This document shows, piece after piece, positions 2,954 through 39,156 of a DNA stretch of 40,524 nt. The notes beneath the pieces are model-generated. The model searched no databases. It saw nothing but the letters and a program-made list of their open reading frames with translations, and had not been told where the DNA came from. A program made the translations under genes and the position numbers. Every line of letters starts with the position of its first letter. Position 1 is the stretch's first letter. Origin of the DNA: a virus (taxonomy: Duplodnaviria; Heunggongvirae; Uroviricota; Caudoviricetes); IMG/VR virus record IMGVR_UViG_2627853794_000002, positions 1 through 40,524 of that record, one strand, 5' to 3'.

Positions 2954-3021
2954 GATAGCTCCTCCTGACAAAAACAGGAACGATGCCATTTGCGCGCTAT
3001 TTCTGCATTTTCATAAACGTT

Positions 3022-3042
3022 GGTTTGGGAGAGGCGGCAAAA
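3022..3042. repeat. Invertase crossover site, left copy
   Basis: ggtttgggagaggcggcaaaa; inverted copy at 4573-4593 with 1 mismatch; encodes GLGEAAK in both tail-fibre reading frames. Confidence 0.6.
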
Positions 3043-3366
3043 ATGTCTGCCGCTGCACTTGTCATTAACGGTAATACGTTGACAGCAAAAATCCCGGTAG
3101 TTATTAACGGCGTTAACAGGGAGTTTATTATTCAGGCATCTCAGATATCCAGCTCAGCAAGCAATGGTGTTATTACCTTCCCATCCGCATTTCCAAATGC
3201 GTGTATTGCGATTTTTGCGCATGACTTTGCGACAGCGTCTACGGATTTATCGAATGTTCGGTTCTATATGCCAGGAAGAACATCAGCATCATGGACAGGG
3301 CAAAATATGAGTACAGGCAGTGAATCATCACCTGCAACATGGTGTTGGCTGGCAATTGGCTGGTAA
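3022..3366 (+). CDS. Alternative tail-fibre C-terminal cassette (silent in this orientation)
   Basis: ORF 2983-3366 shares GLGEAAK with the expressed fibre at the crossover site; no own start downstream of site; would fuse to fibre N-terminus after inversion. Confidence 0.55.
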   Translation, partial: GLGEAAKMSAAALVINGNTLTAKIPVVINGVNREFIIQASQISSSASNGVITFPSAFPNACIAIFAHDFATASTDLSNVRFYMPGRTSASWTGQNMSTGSESSPATWCWLAIGW

Positions 3367-3786
3367 ATGGAGAAAACAATGAAATATTTTACATCTGCTC
3401 CGATTGCTCTTTATAACTCCGATATATCCTCTTATATACCCGGTGACGCAGTAGAAATCAGTGATGAAGTATATGACGCACTTATTGCTGGTCAGGAGGC
3501 AGGAAAGAATATTACGGCAGACAGTAACGGACTGCCTGTACTGGCAGAACCCGCACAACCAACTCATGATGAATTGGTTGCAGCATCTGAATTAATGAAA
3601 CAGCATCTGATTGATGCTGCTATGGCTTCCATCAGTCTGATTCAGCTGAAATTGCAGGCCGGACGTAAATTGACGCAGGCAGAAACAACCCGGCTTAACG
3701 CTGTGCTGGATTACATTGACGCAGTGACGGCAACAGATACCAGCACCGCGCCGGATGTCATCTGGCCTGAACTGCCGGAGGCGTAG
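3367..3786 (+). CDS. Tail fibre assembly protein (alternate-orientation copy, Tfa family)
   Basis: 139 aa; C-terminal ...APDVIWPELPEA typical of Tfa chaperones; follows silent fibre cassette. Confidence 0.7.
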   Translation: MEKTMKYFTSAPIALYNSDISSYIPGDAVEISDEVYDALIAGQEAGKNITADSNGLPVLAEPAQPTHDELVAASELMKQHLIDAAMASISLIQLKLQAGRKLTQAETTRLNAVLDYIDAVTATDTSTAPDVIWPELPEA

Positions 3787-5472: not shown

Positions 5473-6521
5473 GAAATCGTCCCCAGTACCGCCAGTTCGT
5501 TTTTCGCAATGGAGATATTGTCCACCGGTGCAAGCAACTGATGGCTGTATTCCCCGTTCGCACCGGAAATCGCCTCACTGATACGCGATACCTTCAGTTC
5601 TCCCTGCGGATAACCATCACGCAGCAGGAACGAACGCAACTCCGCGGTAATGGCAGCCCGTATTTCCGGTGTGTCCGGCGTCACGCGGATATGAAAATCC
5701 ACCGTATGTGCCACCGGCCTGAATACATACAAATCAGAGCCTGCCACCGGGGCCAGTGGCCCGATATGTTGTCTTGCTGCCGTTTCCGTTGATTCTTCCG
5801 GAATGGGATTAATCAGGTCACTGCTGGCAATCATCACACCGACAGTTCCCGTTCCCATCCAGTGACGGTATGTCCATGCGCGGGTAATGCCGGGCACTTC
5901 TTTAGCCCAGACGACATAGTCCCCGTCAGCCCCGCCCTGAGGCGTCCAGTAATACCGCTCAATGACGCGGGCGCGCCACGTTTCCAGCTCTTCAGTATCA
6001 AATCCACCTGTCAGGGTATCTGCCACGCCGGAAGACGGCAGACCATTAACCGGCGTGACCAGGATTAATGACGTACCGTCGTCAGCGTTACCGACCGCGC
6101 CTGCACTTGAGCAGGCGATCGGCACGCGCAGGACACCACCGGAGCTGGTTGCATCGGCAGTTGCCGTGTACTGAACCAGGTCATCGCGCTGAATAACACT
6201 CCCGGCGGTCACCTTCAGGCCATCGCTGACACCTTCCCAGCGCATATACCCGCTGGCAGCCGTGGCCCCCTTGCGCGGACACCGTTTCATCGCAGCATGT
6301 CGCGCCAGCCAGGACGCATCGCACAGGTCAGGCAGCATGTTCATTGCCAGATAATCGATGTACCCGTAAACCGTATGCAGCGCCGCCGCATACACCTTTG
6401 CCCGCACGTCTTCATCCATGCGCCGGAGCGTGTCGCTGACGTCCAGCCTGGCGAATAAATCGTTACGGAGCATACTGATATTTTCTGCCAGCGTCGGGCG
6501 CTGAAATTCACTGTCCGCCAT
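5463..6521 (-). CDS. Baseplate J-like protein (Mu gp47-like)
   Basis: 352 aa; synteny within Mu-like baseplate module. Confidence 0.65.
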
Positions 6522-24167: not shown

Positions 24168-24242
<75 letters not shown>

Positions 24243-24245
24243 ATA

Positions 24246-24321
<76 letters not shown>

Positions 24322-24323
24322 AC

Positions 24324-24400
24324 TGGACCGCCACCGGGGACTCGAACCTCGCACACTCAACTTAAAGGGTTGACGCTCTTTCCTGATGAGCTAGTGGCGG
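24324..24400 (-). tRNA. Atypical tRNA, anticodon UUU (Lys?) with C33
   Basis: 77 nt; perfect 7-bp acceptor stem CCGCCAC/GTGGCGG, anticodon stem TCAAC/GTTGA, loop CCUUUAA, T-loop TTCGAGT with one A-C mismatch in T stem; CCA encoded. Confidence 0.55.
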
Positions 24401-24401
24401 C

Positions 24402-24477
24402 TGGTGGCCCTTGCTGGATTTGAACCAGCGACCTGGCGATTATGAGTCGCTCGCTCTCACCACTGAGCTAAAGGGCC
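24402..24477 (-). tRNA. tRNA with anticodon CAU, most similar to tRNA-Ile2 (ileX/ileY-like) rather than elongator Met
   Basis: 76 nt; loop CUCAUAA; acceptor GGCCCTT/AAGGGCC; CCA encoded. Confidence 0.75.
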
Positions 24478-24659: not shown

Positions 24660-24688
24660 AATATATGCCTTTCAATCTACTTTTGCAA
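24660..24688 (-). promoter_or_regulatory. Candidate late promoter (pR'-like), sigma70 type
   Basis: Minus strand TTGCAA - 17 nt - TATATT overlapping 3' end of Q-like gene; ~50 nt upstream of terminator. Confidence 0.4.
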
Positions 24689-25361
24689 CACTTTGCTTTG
24701 AAAATGCCACCTTTTGTTTTGAACGTGTTCTCATTACAAACAATAAAGCCTCACTATCAAGTCGGTGAAAAATGTGTTTCATTGCAACCCAGTGACGAGT
24801 AAATGTTTTGGACCAGTTTTTAGTTGTCACTCCCGCCAGTAATGCCAGCTCCTGGTATTCATAACCTTCCCCACCAAAAAGTTCTGCTTTTACTGCCTGC
24901 GCCGCCAGCCAGATTAATTTTTTCAGGCGTTCCTGCGTTTTCCCTGCAATTTTTCTGGTACCGGATTGAGTATTAAATTCATTCCACGCCCACTGTGTTA
25001 TCGCGATCTGATATTCCCAACAAATACTCCCGCTGTAACACCACAACAACCAGGCTTTATGATGTTCTTCAAGAGACAGAACTGCCCGTCGCCATGATGA
25101 TGTCGAAAACTCAACCTGACTTACCAGAGCAATTGATGAGCCTTTCGCCAGTGATTGTTTTCCCGGTATCGGTGGACTATCCCGCGTTATCATTCTTCCA
25201 GTCACTTCATCGCGGTACCGGATTTTTTTACGCCTGTAACGCCCTGTATCAAACATGGCATTCTCCTGCCAGGCTTCAAGCTGGCCTTTCGTTGCTCCGC
25301 TCAAATCAGCGGTAGCCACAATGAGTTGCTCGCGGACATACTGTAAATATTGGGTATTCAT
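24672..25361 (-). CDS. Putative late-gene antiterminator (Q-like by position); family not recognised
   Basis: 229 aa; located between rusA and late promoter/terminator/lysis genes as Q is in lambdoid phages; no recognisable zinc finger. Confidence 0.4.
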   Translation of the reverse strand: MNTQYLQYVREQLIVATADLSGATKGQLEAWQENAMFDTGRYRRKKIRYRDEVTGRMITRDSPPIPGKQSLAKGSSIALVSQVEFSTSSWRRAVLSLEEHHKAWLLWCYSGSICWEYQIAITQWAWNEFNTQSGTRKIAGKTQERLKKLIWLAAQAVKAELFGGEGYEYQELALLAGVTTKNWSKTFTRHWVAMKHIFHRLDSEALLFVMRTRSKQKVAFSKQSVAKVD

Positions 25362-28336: not shown

Positions 28337-28831
28337 TCATTTCCAATTGCAAGACTGTGAAATTTTTTCCACAACCTTATCAATCTCAGACAAGTCAAAC
28401 TCAACTACTTGCATAGTTGATCCATAAGGTTCAAACCCAAAAATAGCTTTTTTATGCTTAGCCAAGGTCTTTATAAATTGTATTGGTTGTGGAGCAAATG
28501 CAGAATCACCGCCTTCCCCACCTCCCCAAACACTCTTGACCGGCTTTCCGCCATCTAACCGCACTGTAATTCTTGGGTTGTCCGACCCCATATAATCATT
28601 GAATGATAAATAGGCATCTGTTTTGTTATCACTACAACGCAACACCAGTGAAGTTGCACGATCAGTACCTGCTTTGTTATATGAATCTGGTGATAAATTA
28701 AGAGCCACAAAGTCAGTCTGGTCAGTCATTTTATTTATCTCAGACTTTGTTATCCACGGCCCTAACTTCTCTACACCAGCATTTGCTGTAAACGAGGCAC
28801 TTATGACAAAGGCTAAAATAAATTTTCTCAT
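28337..28831 (-). CDS. Exported (signal-peptide) hypothetical protein
   Basis: 164 aa; N-terminal MRKFILAFVISASFTANA signal peptide; AT-rich; own terminator. Confidence 0.55.
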   Translation of the reverse strand: MRKFILAFVISASFTANAGVEKLGPWITKSEINKMTDQTDFVALNLSPDSYNKAGTDRATSLVLRCSDNKTDAYLSFNDYMGSDNPRITVRLDGGKPVKSVWGGGEGGDSAFAPQPIQFIKTLAKHKKAIFGFEPYGSTMQVVEFDLSEIDKVVEKISQSCNWK

Positions 28832-28977: not shown

Positions 28978-29151
28978 TTAAACAAACGTTCGCCAGACCT
29001 TACCATCAATGACCAGGATTCCTGCCCGCGCCATTTTTGCCGCAGCCTGATTTATGCTGGTTAATGTCATACCTGTTGTCGCAGCAACGTCCGGCGCACA
29101 GAAGCTCTTGTGCGTCTCCAGATAATGAATAATTGCCTCTTTGCCCGTCAT
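28978..29151 (-). CDS. ren: Ren-like protein, C-terminally truncated
   Basis: 57-aa ORF MTGKEAIIHYLETHKSFCAPDVAATTGMTLTSINQAAAKMARAGILVIDGKVWRTFV, resembles N-terminal ~55 aa of lambda Ren (96 aa) as recalled; ATGA overlap with P stop. Confidence 0.5.
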   Translation of the reverse strand: MTGKEAIIHYLETHKSFCAPDVAATTGMTLTSINQAAAKMARAGILVIDGKVWRTFV

Positions 29152-29849
29152 ACAGTTGCTCCTTTCAGTCCGAACTTCGCTTTGATTTCTGCGATCTTCG
29201 CCAGAGCCTGTGCACGATTTAGAGGTCTACCGCCCATGACAGGAAGTTGTTTTACTGGTTCAGGTATCGCCTCACCACGGTTAATTCGCGCGGTCATACA
29301 AGTCAGTTCATCGGCAGCCTTGCGCCGTAATTCCGCATCAGTCAGCGCATTGGCCCGCATGTTCTGATACAGGTTGGTAACCAACCAGTAGTGCGCGTTT
29401 GATTTCCATGGATAAGACTCTGCATCCGGATAAAGGCCACGCTTCCGGCAATACTCGTAAACCATATCAACCAGCTCGCTGGCGTTTGGCAGCCCGGCGT
29501 TAACGGATGCTTCTTCCCGGCACCAGGCGACAAACTGCCCGGGTGATGGCAGGAATGGTCGATTCTGCCGACGGGCTACGCGCATTCCTGCGTTAACCTG
29601 TTCCATTGTGGTGATCCCGTTTTCCCGGAAAGCCAGAACCCACTGGCGGCGGATTTCGTTCAGTTCATTCTGGTCACGGTTAGCCAGGCTCGCCGGGAAA
29701 GTTGCCAGTAACTGGCTGAACACACCGTTGATGATCTGCGCTACCTGCTGTACCTGCGGCTTTTCGTCGTACTGTTCCGGCATGTTGTTGGCGATCCGGC
29801 GCATCTGCTCACGGTCAAAGTTAACCATCTGTGCGGCGATGTTTTTCAT
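29148..29849 (-). CDS. P: Replication protein P (DnaB helicase loader)
   Basis: 233 aa MKNIAAQMVNFDREQMRRIANNMPEQYDEK...; near-identical to lambda P as recalled. Confidence 0.9.
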   Translation of the reverse strand: MKNIAAQMVNFDREQMRRIANNMPEQYDEKPQVQQVAQIINGVFSQLLATFPASLANRDQNELNEIRRQWVLAFRENGITTMEQVNAGMRVARRQNRPFLPSPGQFVAWCREEASVNAGLPNASELVDMVYEYCRKRGLYPDAESYPWKSNAHYWLVTNLYQNMRANALTDAELRRKAADELTCMTARINRGEAIPEPVKQLPVMGGRPLNRAQALAKIAEIKAKFGLKGATV

Positions 29850-31431: not shown

Positions 31432-31659
31432 TTAGGCGGCAGAATTACTCGCGTTAAACAATGGTGCGAGGTCGGGACGAATATCTGCTGGTTTAATCTT
31501 TCCACCAGTGGCTGAGACAATTTTCATTACATAGCGGGCATCAATTCCGCCACCGTGTAGCCAACGCCAAACTGTGGGTTGGGCTACACCGCATAGATCT
31601 GCCAGTCGTTTTTGACTACCTGTAATACTGATTGCGAGTTGAATGGTTTGATTTGTCAT
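31432..31659 (-). CDS. cro: Cro-like HTH repressor (YdaS-like)
   Basis: 75 aa from ATG 31659; HTH ...LADLCGVAQPTVWRWLHGGG; divergent from cI. Confidence 0.65.
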   Translation of the reverse strand: MTNQTIQLAISITGSQKRLADLCGVAQPTVWRWLHGGGIDARYVMKIVSATGGKIKPADIRPDLAPLFNASNSAA

Positions 31660-31690
31660 TATCAATTCCTATTGGTATTACAATGAATGA

Positions 31691-31719
31691 ATAATAGCAA
31701 TGCGTATTAATCCAAGCAA
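31691..31719 (-). promoter_or_regulatory. Candidate pR promoter (toward cro) overlapping operator repeats
   Basis: Minus strand TTGCTT - 17 nt - TATTAT; operator motif copies CAATAGCAA at 31690-31729. Confidence 0.45.
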
Positions 31720-31733
31720 TAGCAAAACGTGTT

Positions 31734-31760
31734 TTGACCATCAATACGCAAGCGTATAAA
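31734..31760 (+). promoter_or_regulatory. Candidate pRM promoter (toward cI; near-leaderless transcript)
   Basis: TTGACC - 15 nt - TATAAA, ~10 nt before cI ATG; spacer suboptimal. Confidence 0.3.
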
Positions 31761-31769
31761 TTAAAACTT

Positions 31770-32462
31770 ATGAAAAAAGAAACTCTTGCTGATCGCTTAA
31801 ACCTAGCGATGGAACAATCTGGAATGTCTCAAGGCGCTCTTGCAAAGGCGTCTGGCGTAGCTCAACCCACAATCTGGAGACTGACAAGCGGCAACGCGCG
31901 CGGCTCAACAAAAATTGTTGAAATAGCTAATGCATTGGGTGTTCGAACAGAATGGCTCTCATCAGGCATAGGCCCGATGAGAAATGACGGTCAACAATCA
32001 GGGAAGCCTGCTGTCAGCCATTCAAAATACTTCAAGATTGACGTTCTTGATATAGAAGTCAGTGCCGGACCGGGTGTCATCAACCGTGAGTTTGTGGAAG
32101 TTCTACGCTCGGTTGAGTACTCGTTTGACGATGCTCGTCACATGTTCGATGGCAGGAAGGCGGAAAATATCCGCATCATTAACGTGCGCGGTGACAGCAT
32201 GTCAGGAACGATCGAACCAGGTGATCTGCTGTTCGTTGATATCACTGTTAAATCTTTCGACGGTGATGGTATCTATGCGTTTCTGTACGACGACACAGCC
32301 CATGTAAAGCGTCTGCAAATGATGAAGGATAAGCTGCTGGTTATCTCTGATAACAAGAGCTACTCACCGTGGGACCCGATCGAGAAAGACGAGATGAACC
32401 GGGTGTTCATCTTCGGTAAGGTTATTGGGAGCATGCCGCAGACTTACCGAAAGCATGGTTAA
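31770..32462 (+). CDS. cI: CI-like prophage repressor (HTH plus S24 LexA-like autopeptidase domain)
   Basis: 230 aa from ATG 31770; N-terminal HTH (SQGALAKASGVAQPTIWRL), C-terminal ...VRGDSMSGTIEPGDLLFVD... and K in ...HVKRLQ. Confidence 0.85.
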   Translation: MKKETLADRLNLAMEQSGMSQGALAKASGVAQPTIWRLTSGNARGSTKIVEIANALGVRTEWLSSGIGPMRNDGQQSGKPAVSHSKYFKIDVLDIEVSAGPGVINREFVEVLRSVEYSFDDARHMFDGRKAENIRIINVRGDSMSGTIEPGDLLFVDITVKSFDGDGIYAFLYDDTAHVKRLQMMKDKLLVISDNKSYSPWDPIEKDEMNRVFIFGKVIGSMPQTYRKHG

Positions 32463-32693: not shown

Positions 32694-33017
32694 ATGAACG
32701 ACAATAACAAGAATACTCGATCGCCAGAAGAGCATGAAGCTGTAGAAAAAGCGTTATCTGTTACACGAGCAGATATCGCGGAGTATTTTACTTCATTCGA
32801 AAAGCAGCATGGCGATATGTTGTGTCCGCTATGCAAAACATCTCTTTGGGCCATCACGCCTAGAATTGATAGTGATGAGCATGCAGCTATTATCACTTTA
32901 CCATTGCCTAATGCATCTGGCAGGGGGGTTTGGGCATATCCTATTATATGCTCTGGATGTGGCTATATAATTCATCTTTCTGCAAGTTTTGTCGTAGGCA
33001 AAATCAAAGGAGAATGA
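32694..33017 (+). CDS. Hypothetical protein A with CxxC...CxxC zinc-ribbon-like motif
   Basis: 107 aa; C44PLC47 and C86SGC89; RBS ggtga; AT-rich; stop overlaps next start (ATGA). Confidence 0.6.
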   Translation: MNDNNKNTRSPEEHEAVEKALSVTRADIAEYFTSFEKQHGDMLCPLCKTSLWAITPRIDSDEHAAIITLPLPNASGRGVWAYPIICSGCGYIIHLSASFVVGKIKGE

Positions 33018-33472
33018 AAGTGGCTACTGTTGCAATAGATGGTTATTCATTCATCACGGTTTCCGATAGTTGCATCTCTGACACAGCGCTTCCACCTATT
33101 GAAAATACTTATGGTGACAATATATACATACCCAAAATCGTTGAAACCATAGGTCCGGTTTATCGCCAAAAAGACTTAGATCACAGATACATACTTTACG
33201 CAGTGGCTGTATCATTAGTGCTCACTTTAAGTGTTGTTGTATGGTCTATAGGAGGTAGGTTTATGGTCTACATTCCATTATACGTTGCACTTGCACCTAT
33301 CGTTTATTGGTTACTGAAGATTTCCTATGCTTACTGCCTCGTAAAATGTGCTGGCTCCAGTCTCCTAGATGACTTTGATTCTCACCATATTGAGAACAAC
33401 AGGTTTGTAAAGCGTATTAATAGTATTTCATTCAGAGTAGTTGCTATAACAAAAAAACTTTTCTGGAGATAA
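33014..33472 (+). CDS. Hypothetical small membrane protein B (2 predicted TM helices)
   Basis: 152 aa from ATG 33014 with aaggag RBS; hydrophobic segments YILYAVAVSLVLTLSVVVWSIGG and FMVYIPLYVALAPIVYWLL. Confidence 0.6.
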   Translation: MKVATVAIDGYSFITVSDSCISDTALPPIENTYGDNIYIPKIVETIGPVYRQKDLDHRYILYAVAVSLVLTLSVVVWSIGGRFMVYIPLYVALAPIVYWLLKISYAYCLVKCAGSSLLDDFDSHHIENNRFVKRINSISFRVVAITKKLFWR

Positions 33473-33473
33473 G

Positions 33474-33896
33474 ATGGCAGAAGGGCGTCTAAAAACCGCG
33501 GGTAAAAACAGCCTGCCTTTTGCCATTACCAGTGTTCTTTGTGGTTACATTAACCACATGGTTCCTGAAATTTTTCCGGAAGGGGAAATGCGCCAATGGG
33601 CATATAGCACGATCCCAATGCTATCGCTGGTTTTACTGTACATTATTAGGACAATTAAAGATTTTGGAACTATGAGTCTGGCTCGTCTGGCTATTACTAT
33701 ATGTGCTACCCCAGAGAAAAAGCGCCTCAAACTCATAATGTCTGATAAGCATGTCAGTGAGGAAACAAAAGCTATAGCCGAGGCTCGTTATAATCAAATT
33801 ATTCAAAAAGAATTAGAAATAGGCTCCAATGCGGTTGATTATGTAGTAGGTATGCCAATTGTACATAATCAACCCAGACCAACAATTGATGAATAA
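33474..33896 (+). CDS. Hypothetical small membrane protein C (1-2 predicted TM helices)
   Basis: 140 aa; ggag RBS; start 2 nt after B stop; hydrophobic segment TIPMLSLVLLYIIRTI. Confidence 0.6.
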   Translation: MAEGRLKTAGKNSLPFAITSVLCGYINHMVPEIFPEGEMRQWAYSTIPMLSLVLLYIIRTIKDFGTMSLARLAITICATPEKKRLKLIMSDKHVSEETKAIAEARYNQIIQKELEIGSNAVDYVVGMPIVHNQPRPTIDE

Positions 33897-33906
33897 TTCG
33901 TAAAAA

Positions 33907-33934
33907 ACCCGGCCACCGTGCCGGGTTTTCTTTT
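33907..33934 (+). terminator. Intrinsic terminator closing the cI-A-B-C transcript (tIMM-like)
   Basis: Stem acccggc/gccgggt, 6-nt loop, then TTTTCTTTTG. Confidence 0.65.
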
Positions 33935-34057
33935 GCCTCCCCTCATCACACAAACCGTTCAAAAAACCACCACACCTCACTTCAGTTATCGCTATGCGAT
34001 GCAAGTCACAAAATTAATTCTTTTTGCTATCAAACATTTAATATCAAAACACATCAA

Positions 34058-34102
34058 CCAATAGCAATAAGTATTGATATCACCAATAGCAATAGCTATT
34101 AT
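34058..34102 (+). promoter_or_regulatory. Candidate pL promoter with oL operator repeats
   Basis: Two copies of ACCAATAGCAATA (34058, 34082) sharing CAATAGCAA with the cro-cI intergenic repeats; TTGATA - 17 nt - TATTAT at 34074-34102. Confidence 0.5.
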
Positions 34103-34175
34103 CACCATATCGCAACAACACAACGATACGGCAACCACCTGATTCACCGTTGCGATGACCGCTTAGATCCGCAGT

Positions 34176-34586
34176 TTGAATTTCAGCAGGCTTCGGGGAG
34201 TGCGAGGGGTGAAACGGACGCGTGAACGTCGGTGTGACCAGCTGAAATCAACACAACACTTTATACCTCAGTCGCTTCAACGAGGCGGCTTAGTTATGAC
34301 AACCGGCGGCCATCCACCGCCTGAATACGCGCAGAAGTCTCTATATGTTCAGCAGCCCAGCTTACGGGCAGGAGTTTTTATGGTTCATCAACATTACGGA
34401 ACGCAGACCGTTAATCGAGGTGCGGTCATGCCAGGAATGCTGGTCAAACACAAAGATGGTACCTGGACTGCATCAGCTAATTTACGCGGACGGCTTTATC
34501 TGCATCGCGGCATCGAGCGCACTTATACCCGTGATTTGCTCGTGGAAGTTTTTCTCGACGGACGCGGTAACGGCCTGAATCGCTAA
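34176..34586 (+). CDS. First gene of leftward early operon; possible N-like antiterminator or Kil-like protein, start uncertain
   Basis: ORF track start is TTG 34176; Arg-rich stretch [15 protein letters not shown] near N-terminus; first ATG with RBS at 34296 gives 96 aa; ends just before gam. Confidence 0.4.
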
Positions 34587-34661
34587 TCCCCTTTCCTGTT
34601 TTCCTAATCAGCCTGGCATTTCGCGGGCGATATTTTCACAGCCATTTTCAGGAGTTCAGCC

Positions 34662-34958
34662 ATGAACGCTTATTACATTCAGGATCGTCTTGAGGCTCAG
34701 AGCTGGGCGCGTTACTACCAGCAGATCGCCCGTGAAGAGAAAGAGGCAGAACTGGCAGACGACATGGAAAAAGGCCTGCCCCAGCACCTGTTTGAATCGC
34801 TATGCATCGATCATTTGCAACGCCACGGGGCCAGCAAAAAAGCCATTACCCGTGCGTTTGATGACGATGTTGAGTTTCAGGAGCGCATGGCAGAACACAT
34901 CCGGTACATGGTTGAAACCATTGCTCACCACCAGGTTGATATTGATTCAGAGGTATAA
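34662..34958 (+). CDS. gam: Gam (RecBCD inhibitor), short form
   Basis: 98 aa [28 protein letters not shown]...; near-identical to lambda GamS as recalled. Confidence 0.9.
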
Positions 34959-37061: not shown

Positions 37062-37083
37062 ACATGAAAAGCAAAATCATCAG

Positions 37084-37104
37084 GGAGCTACAGGCTCCTT
37101 TTTT
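37084..37104 (+). terminator. Intrinsic terminator in leftward operon upstream of int region
   Basis: Stem ggagc/gctcc, loop tacag, then TTTTTT. Confidence 0.5.
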
Positions 37105-37704: not shown

Positions 37705-38026
37705 GGCCTGTCAGTTTCTCAAGATATCCAGACCTACCGCTACCAACTGGATACGAACAGGCCGCCTACAGGCAACACGCAAAGACCCCACTAAACCAAA
37801 ATCTCCTTACCTCACAACGCGACAAGCCTGCATTGCGGCGCTTCAGTCTCCGCTGCATACTATCAAGGTGAGCGCGGGTGATGGCATAACAGAGGAAAGA
37901 AAATGTCACTCTTCCGCAGAAGTGAAATATGGTACGCCAGTTTCACATTGCCGAACGGTAAAAGATTTAAACAGTCTCTTGGAACAAAGGACAAAAGGCA
38001 GGCGACAGAGCTCCATGACAAGCTAA
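37676..38026 (+). CDS. xis: Excisionase-like HTH protein (AlpA/Xis family); 3' end overlaps int
   Basis: [33 protein letters not shown]... HTH; ORF runs 124 nt into int in another frame, true C-terminus uncertain. Confidence 0.5.
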
Positions 38027-39066
38027 AGGCTGAAGCATGGCGGGTCAGCAAACTTGGTGAAATACCTGATATGACGTTTGAGGAAGCGTGTGTCAGGTGG
38101 CTCGAAGAGAAAGCACATAAGAAATCACTGGACGATGACAAAAGCCGGATCGGATTCTGGCTTCAACATTTCGCAGGGATGCAACTAAGAGACATCACTG
38201 AATCAAAAATTTATTCAGCGATGCAGAAAATGACAAACCGGCGTCATGAGGAAAACTGGAAACTCAGGGCAGAAGCATGCAGAAAAAAAGGGAAACCTGT
38301 TCCAGAATACACGCCAAAACCAGCGTCCGTTGCAACGAAGGCTACGCATCTTTCATTTATAAAGGCCCTGCTAAGAGCCGCAGAGCGTGAATGGAAAATG
38401 CTGGATAAGGCACCAATTATTAAAGTGCCTCAACCAAAGAATAAACGGATCCGCTGGCTGGAGCCCCATGAAGCACAAAGGCTGATTGATGAATGTCCGG
38501 AGCCATTAAAGTCTGTTGTTGAATTTGCACTGGCAACAGGCTTAAGACGCTCGAACATCATCAACCTTGAATGGCAACAAATAGATATGCAGCGCCGGGT
38601 GGCATGGATAAACCCGGAAGAGAGTAAATCAAACCGCGCAATTGGCGTTGCGCTGAATGATACTGCATGTCGCGTATTGAAAAAACAAATCGGGAATCAT
38701 CACCGTTGGGTATTTGTGTACAAGGAAAGCTGTACCAAACCAGACGGAACGAAAGCGCCAACAGTAAGGAAGATGCGGTATGACGCAAACACAGCCTGGA
38801 AAGCGGCGCTGAGACGGGCTGGTATTGATGATTTCAGATTTCACGACTTGAGACACACCTGGGCAAGTTGGCTGGTTCAAGCCGGAGTCCCGTTGTCAGT
38901 GTTACAGGAAATGGGGGGTTGGGAGTCTATCGAAATGGTTCGTCGATATGCTCACCTTGCACCTAATCACCTTACCGAACACGCACGGCAAATAGACTCG
39001 ATCCTGAATCCATCGGTCCCAAATTTGTCCCAGTCAAAAAATAAGGAAGGTACTAATGATGTGTAA
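37903..39066 (+). CDS. int: Tyrosine integrase (lambdoid prophage integrase)
   Basis: 387 aa; N-terminal [14 protein letters not shown]...; catalytic region ...[39 protein letters not shown]; stop 14 nt from tRNA 3' end. Confidence 0.9.
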
Positions 39067-39080
39067 CTTATTGATTTAAA

Positions 39081-39156
39081 TGGTGCCGATAATAGGAGTC
39101 GAACCTACGACCTTCGCATTACGAATGCGCTGCTCTACCAACTGAGCTATATCGGC
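39081..39156 (-). tRNA. thrW: tRNA-Thr (anticodon CGU), intact; prophage attachment site
   Basis: 76 nt; minus strand GCCGATATAGCTCAGTTGGTAGAGCAGCGCATTCGTAATGCGAAGGTCGTAGGTTCGACTCCTATTATCGGCACCA; adjacent to proA as in E. coli. Confidence 0.9.

Follow-up and report, generated by a model that had tools for sequence, protein, structure and literature searches.

In the leftward early region of a lambdoid prophage, which lies within the 40,524-nucleotide (nt) Caudoviricetes record IMGVR_UViG_2627853794_000002 (positions 1 to 40,524 of this IMG/VR record, called the window here), an open reading frame (ORF) of 136 amino acids (aa) with a TTG start is found between a pL-like promoter and gam, at 34176–34586 on the + strand. 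A sequence-only reading had described this ORF, which is present as described, and had suggested that it encodes a divergent N-like antiterminator or a Kil-like protein, or marks a locus where antitermination works differently. We are confident that the interval is instead made of two parts, the untranslated leader of the pL transcript (34109–34379) and a 68-residue kil gene (34380–34586), misread as one ORF, that no antiterminator takes part up to exo, and that the leader ends in a conserved RNA module. The parts of the interval are:

34109–34379, + strand: untranslated pL leader of about 270 nt, from the variation profile of 70 distinct relatives.
34176–34379, + strand: spurious, non-coding 5' extension of the ORF, with its TTG start, an Arg-rich stretch (34188–34232) and an in-frame ATG (34296).
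34370–34374, + strand: Shine-Dalgarno sequence AGGAG, 5 nt before ATG 34380, read from the sequence.
34380–34586, + strand: kil, encoding a 68-aa cell-division inhibitor of the KilR/phi80-Kil family (stop codon included), from profiles, BLASTP and a coding test.

Only the last 68 of the 136 codons have relatives. They match the Kil profile PHROG 294 at 1.7e-37 over positions 13–79 of 83, and the NCBIfam model of Rac KilR (NF008465, "FtsZ inhibitor protein") at 62.1 bits and 3.6e-17 over positions 1–67 of 73, which align to residues 69–133 of the long ORF, that is, to residues 1–65 of the 68-aa form. The BLASTP alignment with Rac KilR (36% identity, E 9e-13) begins at the Met1 of each protein, identity with phi80 Kil is 40%, and the corresponding coding sequence of an E. 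coli locus 99.1% identical to ours is the 68-aa RefSeq protein WP_000233576.1, "phage encoded cell division inhibitor protein". In eight loci from other genera, as well as in phi80 and HK225, the protein begins with M[VI]HQHYGT or MINHYGT and the sequence upstream is unrelated; a ninth such locus (L003) is cut off just upstream of kil and was left out of this comparison. Both the size and the N-terminus fit the family, which has about 68–73 aa and the conserved start M-x-x-H-[YF]-G-T. Among the 70 distinct alleles of the window's lineage, to which all allele counts below refer, substitutions in kil fall on the three codon positions as 0/2/19 (19 synonymous, 2 non-synonymous), and indels are absent. 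A place in the early leftward operon near recombination genes is also the context of kil in phi80, HK225, KO-TP1 and S9-5. The sequence-only reading was thus right about the Kil family (KilR/phi80 Kil) and wrong about the boundaries, 68 aa rather than 96 or 136, and it missed the family-conserved ATG 34380 with its AGGAG. Proteins of the KilR family are described as blocking division via FtsZ and also disturbing MreB; for Rac KilR itself a disturbance of FtsZ rings is reported, and extra FtsZ suppresses its toxicity (PMC12482147). By homology, Kil of the window would inhibit cell division as KilR does.

The 5' extension behaves entirely differently from kil. Its codons 34176–34295 carry substitutions spread as 9/5/8 over the codon positions (8 synonymous, 12 non-synonymous, 1 stop); the stop is an in-frame TAG at 34269, made from CAG, in 4 alleles, and 3 further alleles have frameshift indels. 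In Citrobacter, Kluyvera, Enterobacter, Silvania and Pseudocitrobacter the in-frame sequence upstream of kil is unrelated and stays open for anything from 4 to 73 codons. The N-terminal 68 residues gave only a chance-level PHROG match (E 0.09) in searches of Pfam, NCBIfam and PHROGs. The comparison of relatives therefore establishes 34176–34379 as non-coding. The Arg-rich N-terminal stretch that had been pointed out is real as a translation, but it is not beyond chance, as the six-frame translation of the 40.5-kb window contains five comparable stretches (15 stop-free residues, 8 or more of them K/R and 6 or more R), and its codons are broken in relatives. Its string KRTRERR may resemble the Arg-rich motifs of N proteins. 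On these data, the Arg-rich "N-terminus" is best read as one reading frame of a G+C-rich untranslated leader. An 11-nt inverted repeat (34180–34190/34238–34248, with 91% complementarity and 47 nt between the arms) covers the Arg-rich codons exactly and forms a long stem in the minimum-free-energy (MFE) fold of the leader.

No homologue of N was found with Pfam, NCBIfam and PHROG either in the 136-aa ORF, its first 68 residues or elsewhere in the window, and the remainder of the ORF is, as had been stated, unlike lambda N. The earlier failure to find a boxA-like element also holds: there is no such match on the + strand in 34103–34380, the window-wide number of matches (106, with 101.7 expected) is at chance level, and the only two-mismatch match in the cro region falls inside the cro coding sequence. 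An Rfam search gave no match in the leader, and inspection by eye shows no likeness to the putL-like region annotated in HK639. The first part of the leader (34109–34262) folds no better than its shuffles (z = 0.17), and there is no sign of a decayed N gene in 34103–34265, because distant blastn of this segment against 50,697 phage records found matches only within the same phage group.

Up to exo, an antiterminator does not seem to be needed in any case. The tL1-type terminator found in other lambdoid phages is absent from the window, and in a pattern scan of the leftward strand only weak terminator matches precede the site at 37082–37100, which lies beyond exo. With no convincing terminator between pL and exo, none would have to be overcome there; transcription from pL would reach kil-gam-bet-exo unaided, which fits a phage without N. 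The suggestion that antitermination works differently here is correct in this trivial sense only, of a phage lacking both N and a tL1-type terminator, with its nearest convincing leftward site at 37082–37100.

The final 120 nt of the leader are of a different nature. On comparative evidence, 34261–34379 is a sense-strand RNA module of about 120 nt, made of three hairpins and ending at the kil Shine-Dalgarno sequence:

34261–34299, + strand: hairpin 1, with a basal stem TTATA/TATGA, two 1x1 mismatches, six covarying pairs, an apical UUC/GAG stem and a 3-nt loop.
34305–34321, + strand: hairpin 2, GGCGG-CCATCCA-CCGCC, near-invariant, 99.6% paired, with only G-U variants.
34355–34369, + strand: hairpin 3 (tentative), GCCC-AGCTTAC-GGGC, directly before the Shine-Dalgarno sequence.

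RNAalifold, given a MAFFT alignment (A1) of 95 distinct copies of the module, predicts hairpins 1 and 2 unaided. In hairpin 1 seven pairs change on both sides, six consecutive pairs occur with up to six pair types (pair 13–27 in all six), and at least seven different stem sequences are found. For a hand-written structure on the same alignment, 97.6% of the cells are paired, compared with 29–53% when the partners are slid by 1–3 columns; in the slid controls double-change cells number at most 51, compared with 163 here, the score for covariation is at most 0.063, compared with 0.289, and none of 500 shuffles reaches the observed values. The module contains abundant U-G/G-U pairs, which would be A-C mismatches on the other strand; therefore, it belongs to the pL-sense (+ strand) transcript, and an RNA of the antisense strand was rejected. 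The existence and the strand of hairpins 1 and 2 can be taken as shown. Hairpin 3 is less certain: stem types GCC/GGC, GCGC/GCGC, GCCC/GGGC and TGCC/GGCA appear at the same position in different copies, and the MAFFT register is inconsistent there. All three hairpins are present in the MFE fold of the leader, and 34290–34379 is almost invariant among close relatives. A covariance model (R1) scores the copy in the window, itself part of the training set, at 108.9 bits; it detects no other copy in the window, nor any in lambda 31.0–36.0 kb or in Rac.

The module reaches far beyond the window's own phage group. Distant blastn of 34255–34379 found it in HK225, phi80 and HK639, in P22-like phages of Salmonella, in Enterobacter phages and in one Klebsiella phage; copies include those of S9-5, CobraSix, BHUENT6 and KO-TP1. 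A pattern scan of IMG/VR added more than 120 further contigs among the matches listed, from which our loci L102–L221 are taken; the other copies are at 2991–3131 in phi80 (L093), 3364–3504 in HK225 (L094), 2482–2617 in HK639 (L095) and in L099–L101. A 28-nt stretch including hairpin 2 is identical in phi80. The usual order is a terminator with its T-run, CATACC, hairpin 1, TTATGA, hairpin 2, a variable linker, GCGCAGAAGTCTTGT.TTAAC.GTTC, a small G+C hairpin, the Shine-Dalgarno sequence and the next gene. Thus the module mostly sits right behind a tL1-type intrinsic terminator, where the window has an ordinary leader; in phi80 it comes just after N and terminator tL1A, and in HK225 it stands directly before kil. 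The genes before the terminator are extremely diverse, with N of the phi80 type in only 5 of 111 cases among the matches listed, and the genes downstream of the module differ between copies as well. Hairpin 2 is followed by a T-run, giving the appearance of an intrinsic terminator, in a minority of copies (L117, L156 and L172 from IMG/VR, HK639 L095 2524–2552, and L099); the window and most copies have no T-run there. The module is not put, because HK639 carries putL and, 1 kb further, also the hairpin module.

Rfam, searched at gathering and at permissive thresholds with the window, phi80, HK225, HK639 and S9-5, returned nothing that covers the leader or the module. A literature search, whose reach did not extend to the older phi80/tL1 papers, gave no description of the module or of its 17-mer core, and the records of phi80, HK225, HK639, CobraSix, S9-5 and KO-TP1 do not describe the three-hairpin module as such; at most it is annotated as a "terminator" or is covered by a wide feature, "t-L1 regulatory signal terminator", in the old record of phi80. 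Two further ideas about the module were not adopted. Pairing between the terminator and hairpin 2 was rejected, as the terminator stems are too variable, and a possible likeness of the conserved linker GUCUUGUUUAAC to the rrn boxA is kept as a lead without being claimed, this linker being variable in length and degenerate in the window. In the IMG/VR loci many of the variable genes before the terminator are preceded by a shared stretch which translates in frame to ..KAFLPHQRVTTEG.. and probably represents a further conserved leader without coding function; it may be a site of the nut or put type. HK225 also has, on the minus strand of L094 (4274–4371), an Rfam match to the Hfq-binding RNA isrB, with 38.2 bits at a gathering score of 35.

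What is the role of the module then? The chances are only slightly under even that it represents an undescribed cis-regulatory RNA family of enterobacterial lambdoid phages, an entry mark of the delayed-early leftward genes that would control processing, stability, Rho sensitivity or translation of the gene that follows, often the toxic kil. A little more tentatively, we propose that it acts as a cis-acting leader which sets the stability, processing and translation of whichever gene comes next. Hairpin 1 starts directly after the U-rich stretch where one is present, and hairpin 3 abuts the Shine-Dalgarno sequence. Behind the U-tract of a terminator, hairpin 1 would turn into a stem-loop that protects the 5' end or into a site of processing, and hairpin 3 would position the ribosome-binding site. 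Upon loss of the repressor, kil, as the first gene of the kil-gam-bet-exo operon, would be made early and block division of the host cell. The long untranslated leader is also a plausible target of Rho, as reported for Rac kilR, which is silenced by Rho/NusG (PMC12482147). Control dependent on an upstream ORF (uORF), modulation of Rho and weak termination are alternative roles for the module.

The first of these alternatives deserves attention, since ATG 34296 forms the 3' strand of the basal stem of hairpin 1 and is invariant in all 95 distinct copies. The module could act via a short uORF starting at this AUG, the translation of which, for example through slow decoding of Pro-Pro-Pro, would open hairpins 1 and 2 and so tune the access of Rho or the translation of the next gene. 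In most copies the ORF has 16 or 21 codons and ends at a conserved TAA in GTATTAAC, the two common linker variants differ by 15 nt and so keep the frame, and the lack of covariation in the basal stem implies a constraint on sequence beyond pairing. However, the spacing from the AUG to hairpin 2 takes values of 6, 7, 8, 9, 10 and 12 nt, so that the frame of the peptide over hairpin 2 is lost, the 16 length classes up to the GAAGTC anchor split 7/4/5 over the three frames, and the AUG is itself base-paired and has no good Shine-Dalgarno sequence. A leader peptide MTTGGHPPP was rejected for the same variation in frame across copies. Overall, we regard a role through a uORF as unlikely, though likelier than the other rival readings.

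The same ATG was the basis of the earlier proposal of a 96-aa protein, and it is indeed in frame with kil in the window. A Kil extended N-terminally to 96 residues, alone or beside the 68-residue form, would be in line with the open frame between 34296 and 34380, which every one of the 70 alleles keeps and whose sequence is almost invariant, with a GAGG upstream and with the longer forms, 96–139-aa "Kil" or "hypothetical" proteins, annotated at this site in several phage records (139 aa in Perceval, for instance). The GAGG that had been taken for the ribosome-binding site is, however, 11 nt away and belongs to the apical stem of hairpin 1, so both it and the ATG are in paired strands, whereas ATG 34380 has AGGAG at 5 nt, and the family profile and all distant homologues begin at this later Met. 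The ORF from the module ATG enters kil only in the window's lineage; elsewhere, when kil comes directly behind the module, it stops (HK225 and L179) or is out of frame (L108 and L129). The RNA module accounts for this invariance, its conservation being just as high before unrelated genes. A minor 96-aa isoform would be compatible with the sequence, with nothing to support it, and we consider such a start improbable.

It is even somewhat less probable that the shared sequence lacks a function of its own and is only a linker for recombination or a mosaic joint that spread recently. The module does lie exactly at the junction of highly variable upstream and variable downstream genes, and much of it hardly differs from phage to phage, but a neutral linker would not be expected to keep hairpin 1 paired through two-sided changes in at least seven stem sequences, nor to have strand-specific wobble pairs. 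Finally, that the 136-aa ORF is a divergent N-like antiterminator, with its Arg-rich motif binding an unrecognised RNA site, is a reading we give almost no weight and hold, from the sequence comparisons, effectively refuted: although the ORF is the first after pL and the window holds no other candidate for N, its TTG start lacks a Shine-Dalgarno sequence, its motif codons contain the stops and frameshifts noted above and show no codon periodicity, such Arg-rich windows recur, neither an N family match nor a boxA, boxB or put-like element is found, and its C-terminal half is a complete Kil, the clear homology which the sequence-only reading had itself named as decisive against an antiterminator.

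Several observations weigh against the picture of an untranslated leader, a structured module and a KilR-type Kil. The NF008465 score of 62.1 bits is below the curated cut-off of 92, so Kil here is a relative of KilR and not an equivalog, and its C-terminal tail (DGRGNGLNR) cannot be aligned with KilR beyond residue 59–61. This tail is essential for the toxicity of Rac KilR (PMC12482147). The frame between 34296 and 34380 is always open in the window's lineage, where substitutions in it amount to just 3 synonymous and 2 non-synonymous ones. Covariation is never seen in hairpin 2 or in the basal stem of hairpin 1; the comparison therefore does not prove their pairing, for which conservation alone speaks, and a different constraint, such as a protein site or a start codon, may account for their invariance. 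Taken as a whole, the leader has no lower MFE than its shuffles (z = 0.85), the pL promoter and its transcription start are predicted, and the function of the module is something we infer.

The surroundings of the interval are those of a lambdoid prophage, whose leftward arm is carried on the + strand of the window; O, P, NinB, RusA and the Q antiterminator are on the other arm. The features around the control region and downstream of kil are:

31432–31665, - strand: YdaS-type cro, opposite the repressor.
31734–32462, + strand: S24/helix-turn-helix (HTH) repressor, facing the YdaS-type cro and a YdaT-type gene.
32694–33896: three ORFs lacking any family match (one of 107 aa with Cys motifs, the others of about 150 aa and of 140 aa) in the rex/moron position, between the repressor and pL.
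33904–33929: clean intrinsic terminator hairpin, closing the three rex-position ORFs.
34057–34100: oL operators, two 19-nt direct repeats ACCAATAGCAATA(A/G)(G/C)TATT, 25 nt apart and overlapping the promoter hexamers, from a repeat search.
34074–34102, + strand: predicted pL promoter, sigma-70-like TTGATA-17 nt-TATTAT, with 10/12 matches in a promoter scan.
34580–34661, + strand: non-coding remnant of the N-terminal extension of lambda long-Gam, 96% identical to lambda with 1 gap in blastn.
34662–34958, + strand: gam, 98 aa, the short-Gam form, matching Pfam PF06064 at 2.3e-64 over its full length.

The control region between the 33904–33929 terminator and the ORF is AT-rich. The pL-like promoter reported earlier is there and, because the 19-nt repeats overlap it and the operator half-site AATAGCAAT/CCAATAGG is found again between repressor and cro (31664–31727), pL behaves as an operator-controlled promoter, from which transcription would start at about 34109. 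Among the 70 relatives, 34140–34379 is conserved along with kil, and the sequence upstream of about 34140 varies with immunity type. This position appears as a mosaic joint, the operators and promoter upstream having 83–91% identity depending on immunity type and the leader and kil downstream being nearly identical. The Citrobacter and Kluyvera loci have promoter, leader and kil arranged as in the window. The leftward operon runs in the order kil, gam, bet, exo. Homology to lambda begins at 34580, within the last codons of kil, and a 1-nt insertion near 34645 (CATTTTC compared with TATTTC in lambda, in the T-run 34645–34648) puts the long-Gam remnant out of frame with gam, just as the sequence-only reading had it.

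Further away, the rightward operon has a strong terminator-like hairpin on the minus strand (28320–28299, with a 9-bp stem and a T-run, from the pattern scan), located between P (29148–29849) and Q (24672–25361), behind a VasI-like ORF (28337–28831). Just downstream of Q there is a tRNA cluster of four genes and a weaker fifth match (24171–24477, minus strand). A single tRNA gene (39084–39156, minus strand) adjoins the integrase (37903–39066) and is probably the attachment site.

The finding about the ORF is itself ordinary, a known Kil-family gene with an over-extended ORF, and the conserved leader RNA alone merits follow-up. The gene model is nevertheless corrected, in favour of the 68-aa RefSeq form over the 96–139-aa annotations, and a false lead towards a new N-like antiterminator is removed. 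The stretch 33900–34700 is found at a coverage of at least 80% in 2020 of 5426 complete E. coli genomes, so that this is a very common type of lambdoid prophage in the species, in which kil opens the leftward early operon and, with the tL1 terminator missing, N would not be needed. The module, as a strongly covarying sense-strand RNA which is a fixed landmark of many lambdoid genomes and absent from Rfam, would offer a handle on the restraint of toxic early genes such as kil and on the fate of the pL transcript after tL1.

Among known systems, one of the closest is kilR (ydaD) of the Rac prophage in E. coli K-12. Like Kil of the window, KilR is small (73 compared with 68 aa), belongs to the same NCBIfam/PHROG family at the 36% identity given above, and is encoded by the first or an early gene of a leftward operon beside recombination genes. 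Both genes have a long 5' untranslated region (UTR), which in Rac holds the small RNA KilS (PMC8175672). KilS is annotated in the kilR 5' UTR at 6406–6503 of our locus L012 (1418405–1418502 of NC_000913). Its terminator hairpin is DicF-like. The two differ in the sub-cut-off equivalog score and unalignable C-terminal tail of the window protein and in their neighbours, recET in Rac and gam-bet-exo in the window, and the leaders are not homologous (8.2 bits with R1, E 0.92), though both kil genes stand behind long structured leaders.

With phi80 the likeness extends to the RNA: its Kil (PHI80_42, 69 aa, 40% identical) is likewise encoded in the leftward operon downstream of the same module. In phi80, however, N, nutL and tL1A come before the module, and two further ORFs separate it from kil. 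The element formed by hairpins 1 and 2 of the window is present in the phi80 tL1 region (L093 2991–3060) and as the second annotated "terminator" of HK639 (L095 2482–2552). In HK639 hairpin 2 is followed by a T-run and carries this annotation, whereas the window has no such run and lacks the preceding intrinsic terminator.

Lambda provides two further comparisons. The ORF shares with lambda N and nut its place as the first after pL and an Arg-rich stretch in one frame, but there is no homology, no coding constraint, no boxA or boxB, and no convincing terminator before exo in the window. Lambda Kil (47 aa) occupies the same map position, immediately upstream of gam, and both it and the KilR family are division inhibitors directed at FtsZ (PMC12482147), yet they belong to unrelated sequence families. 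By sequence, kil of the window and lambda kil thus represent a non-orthologous replacement at the same slot of the leftward operon.

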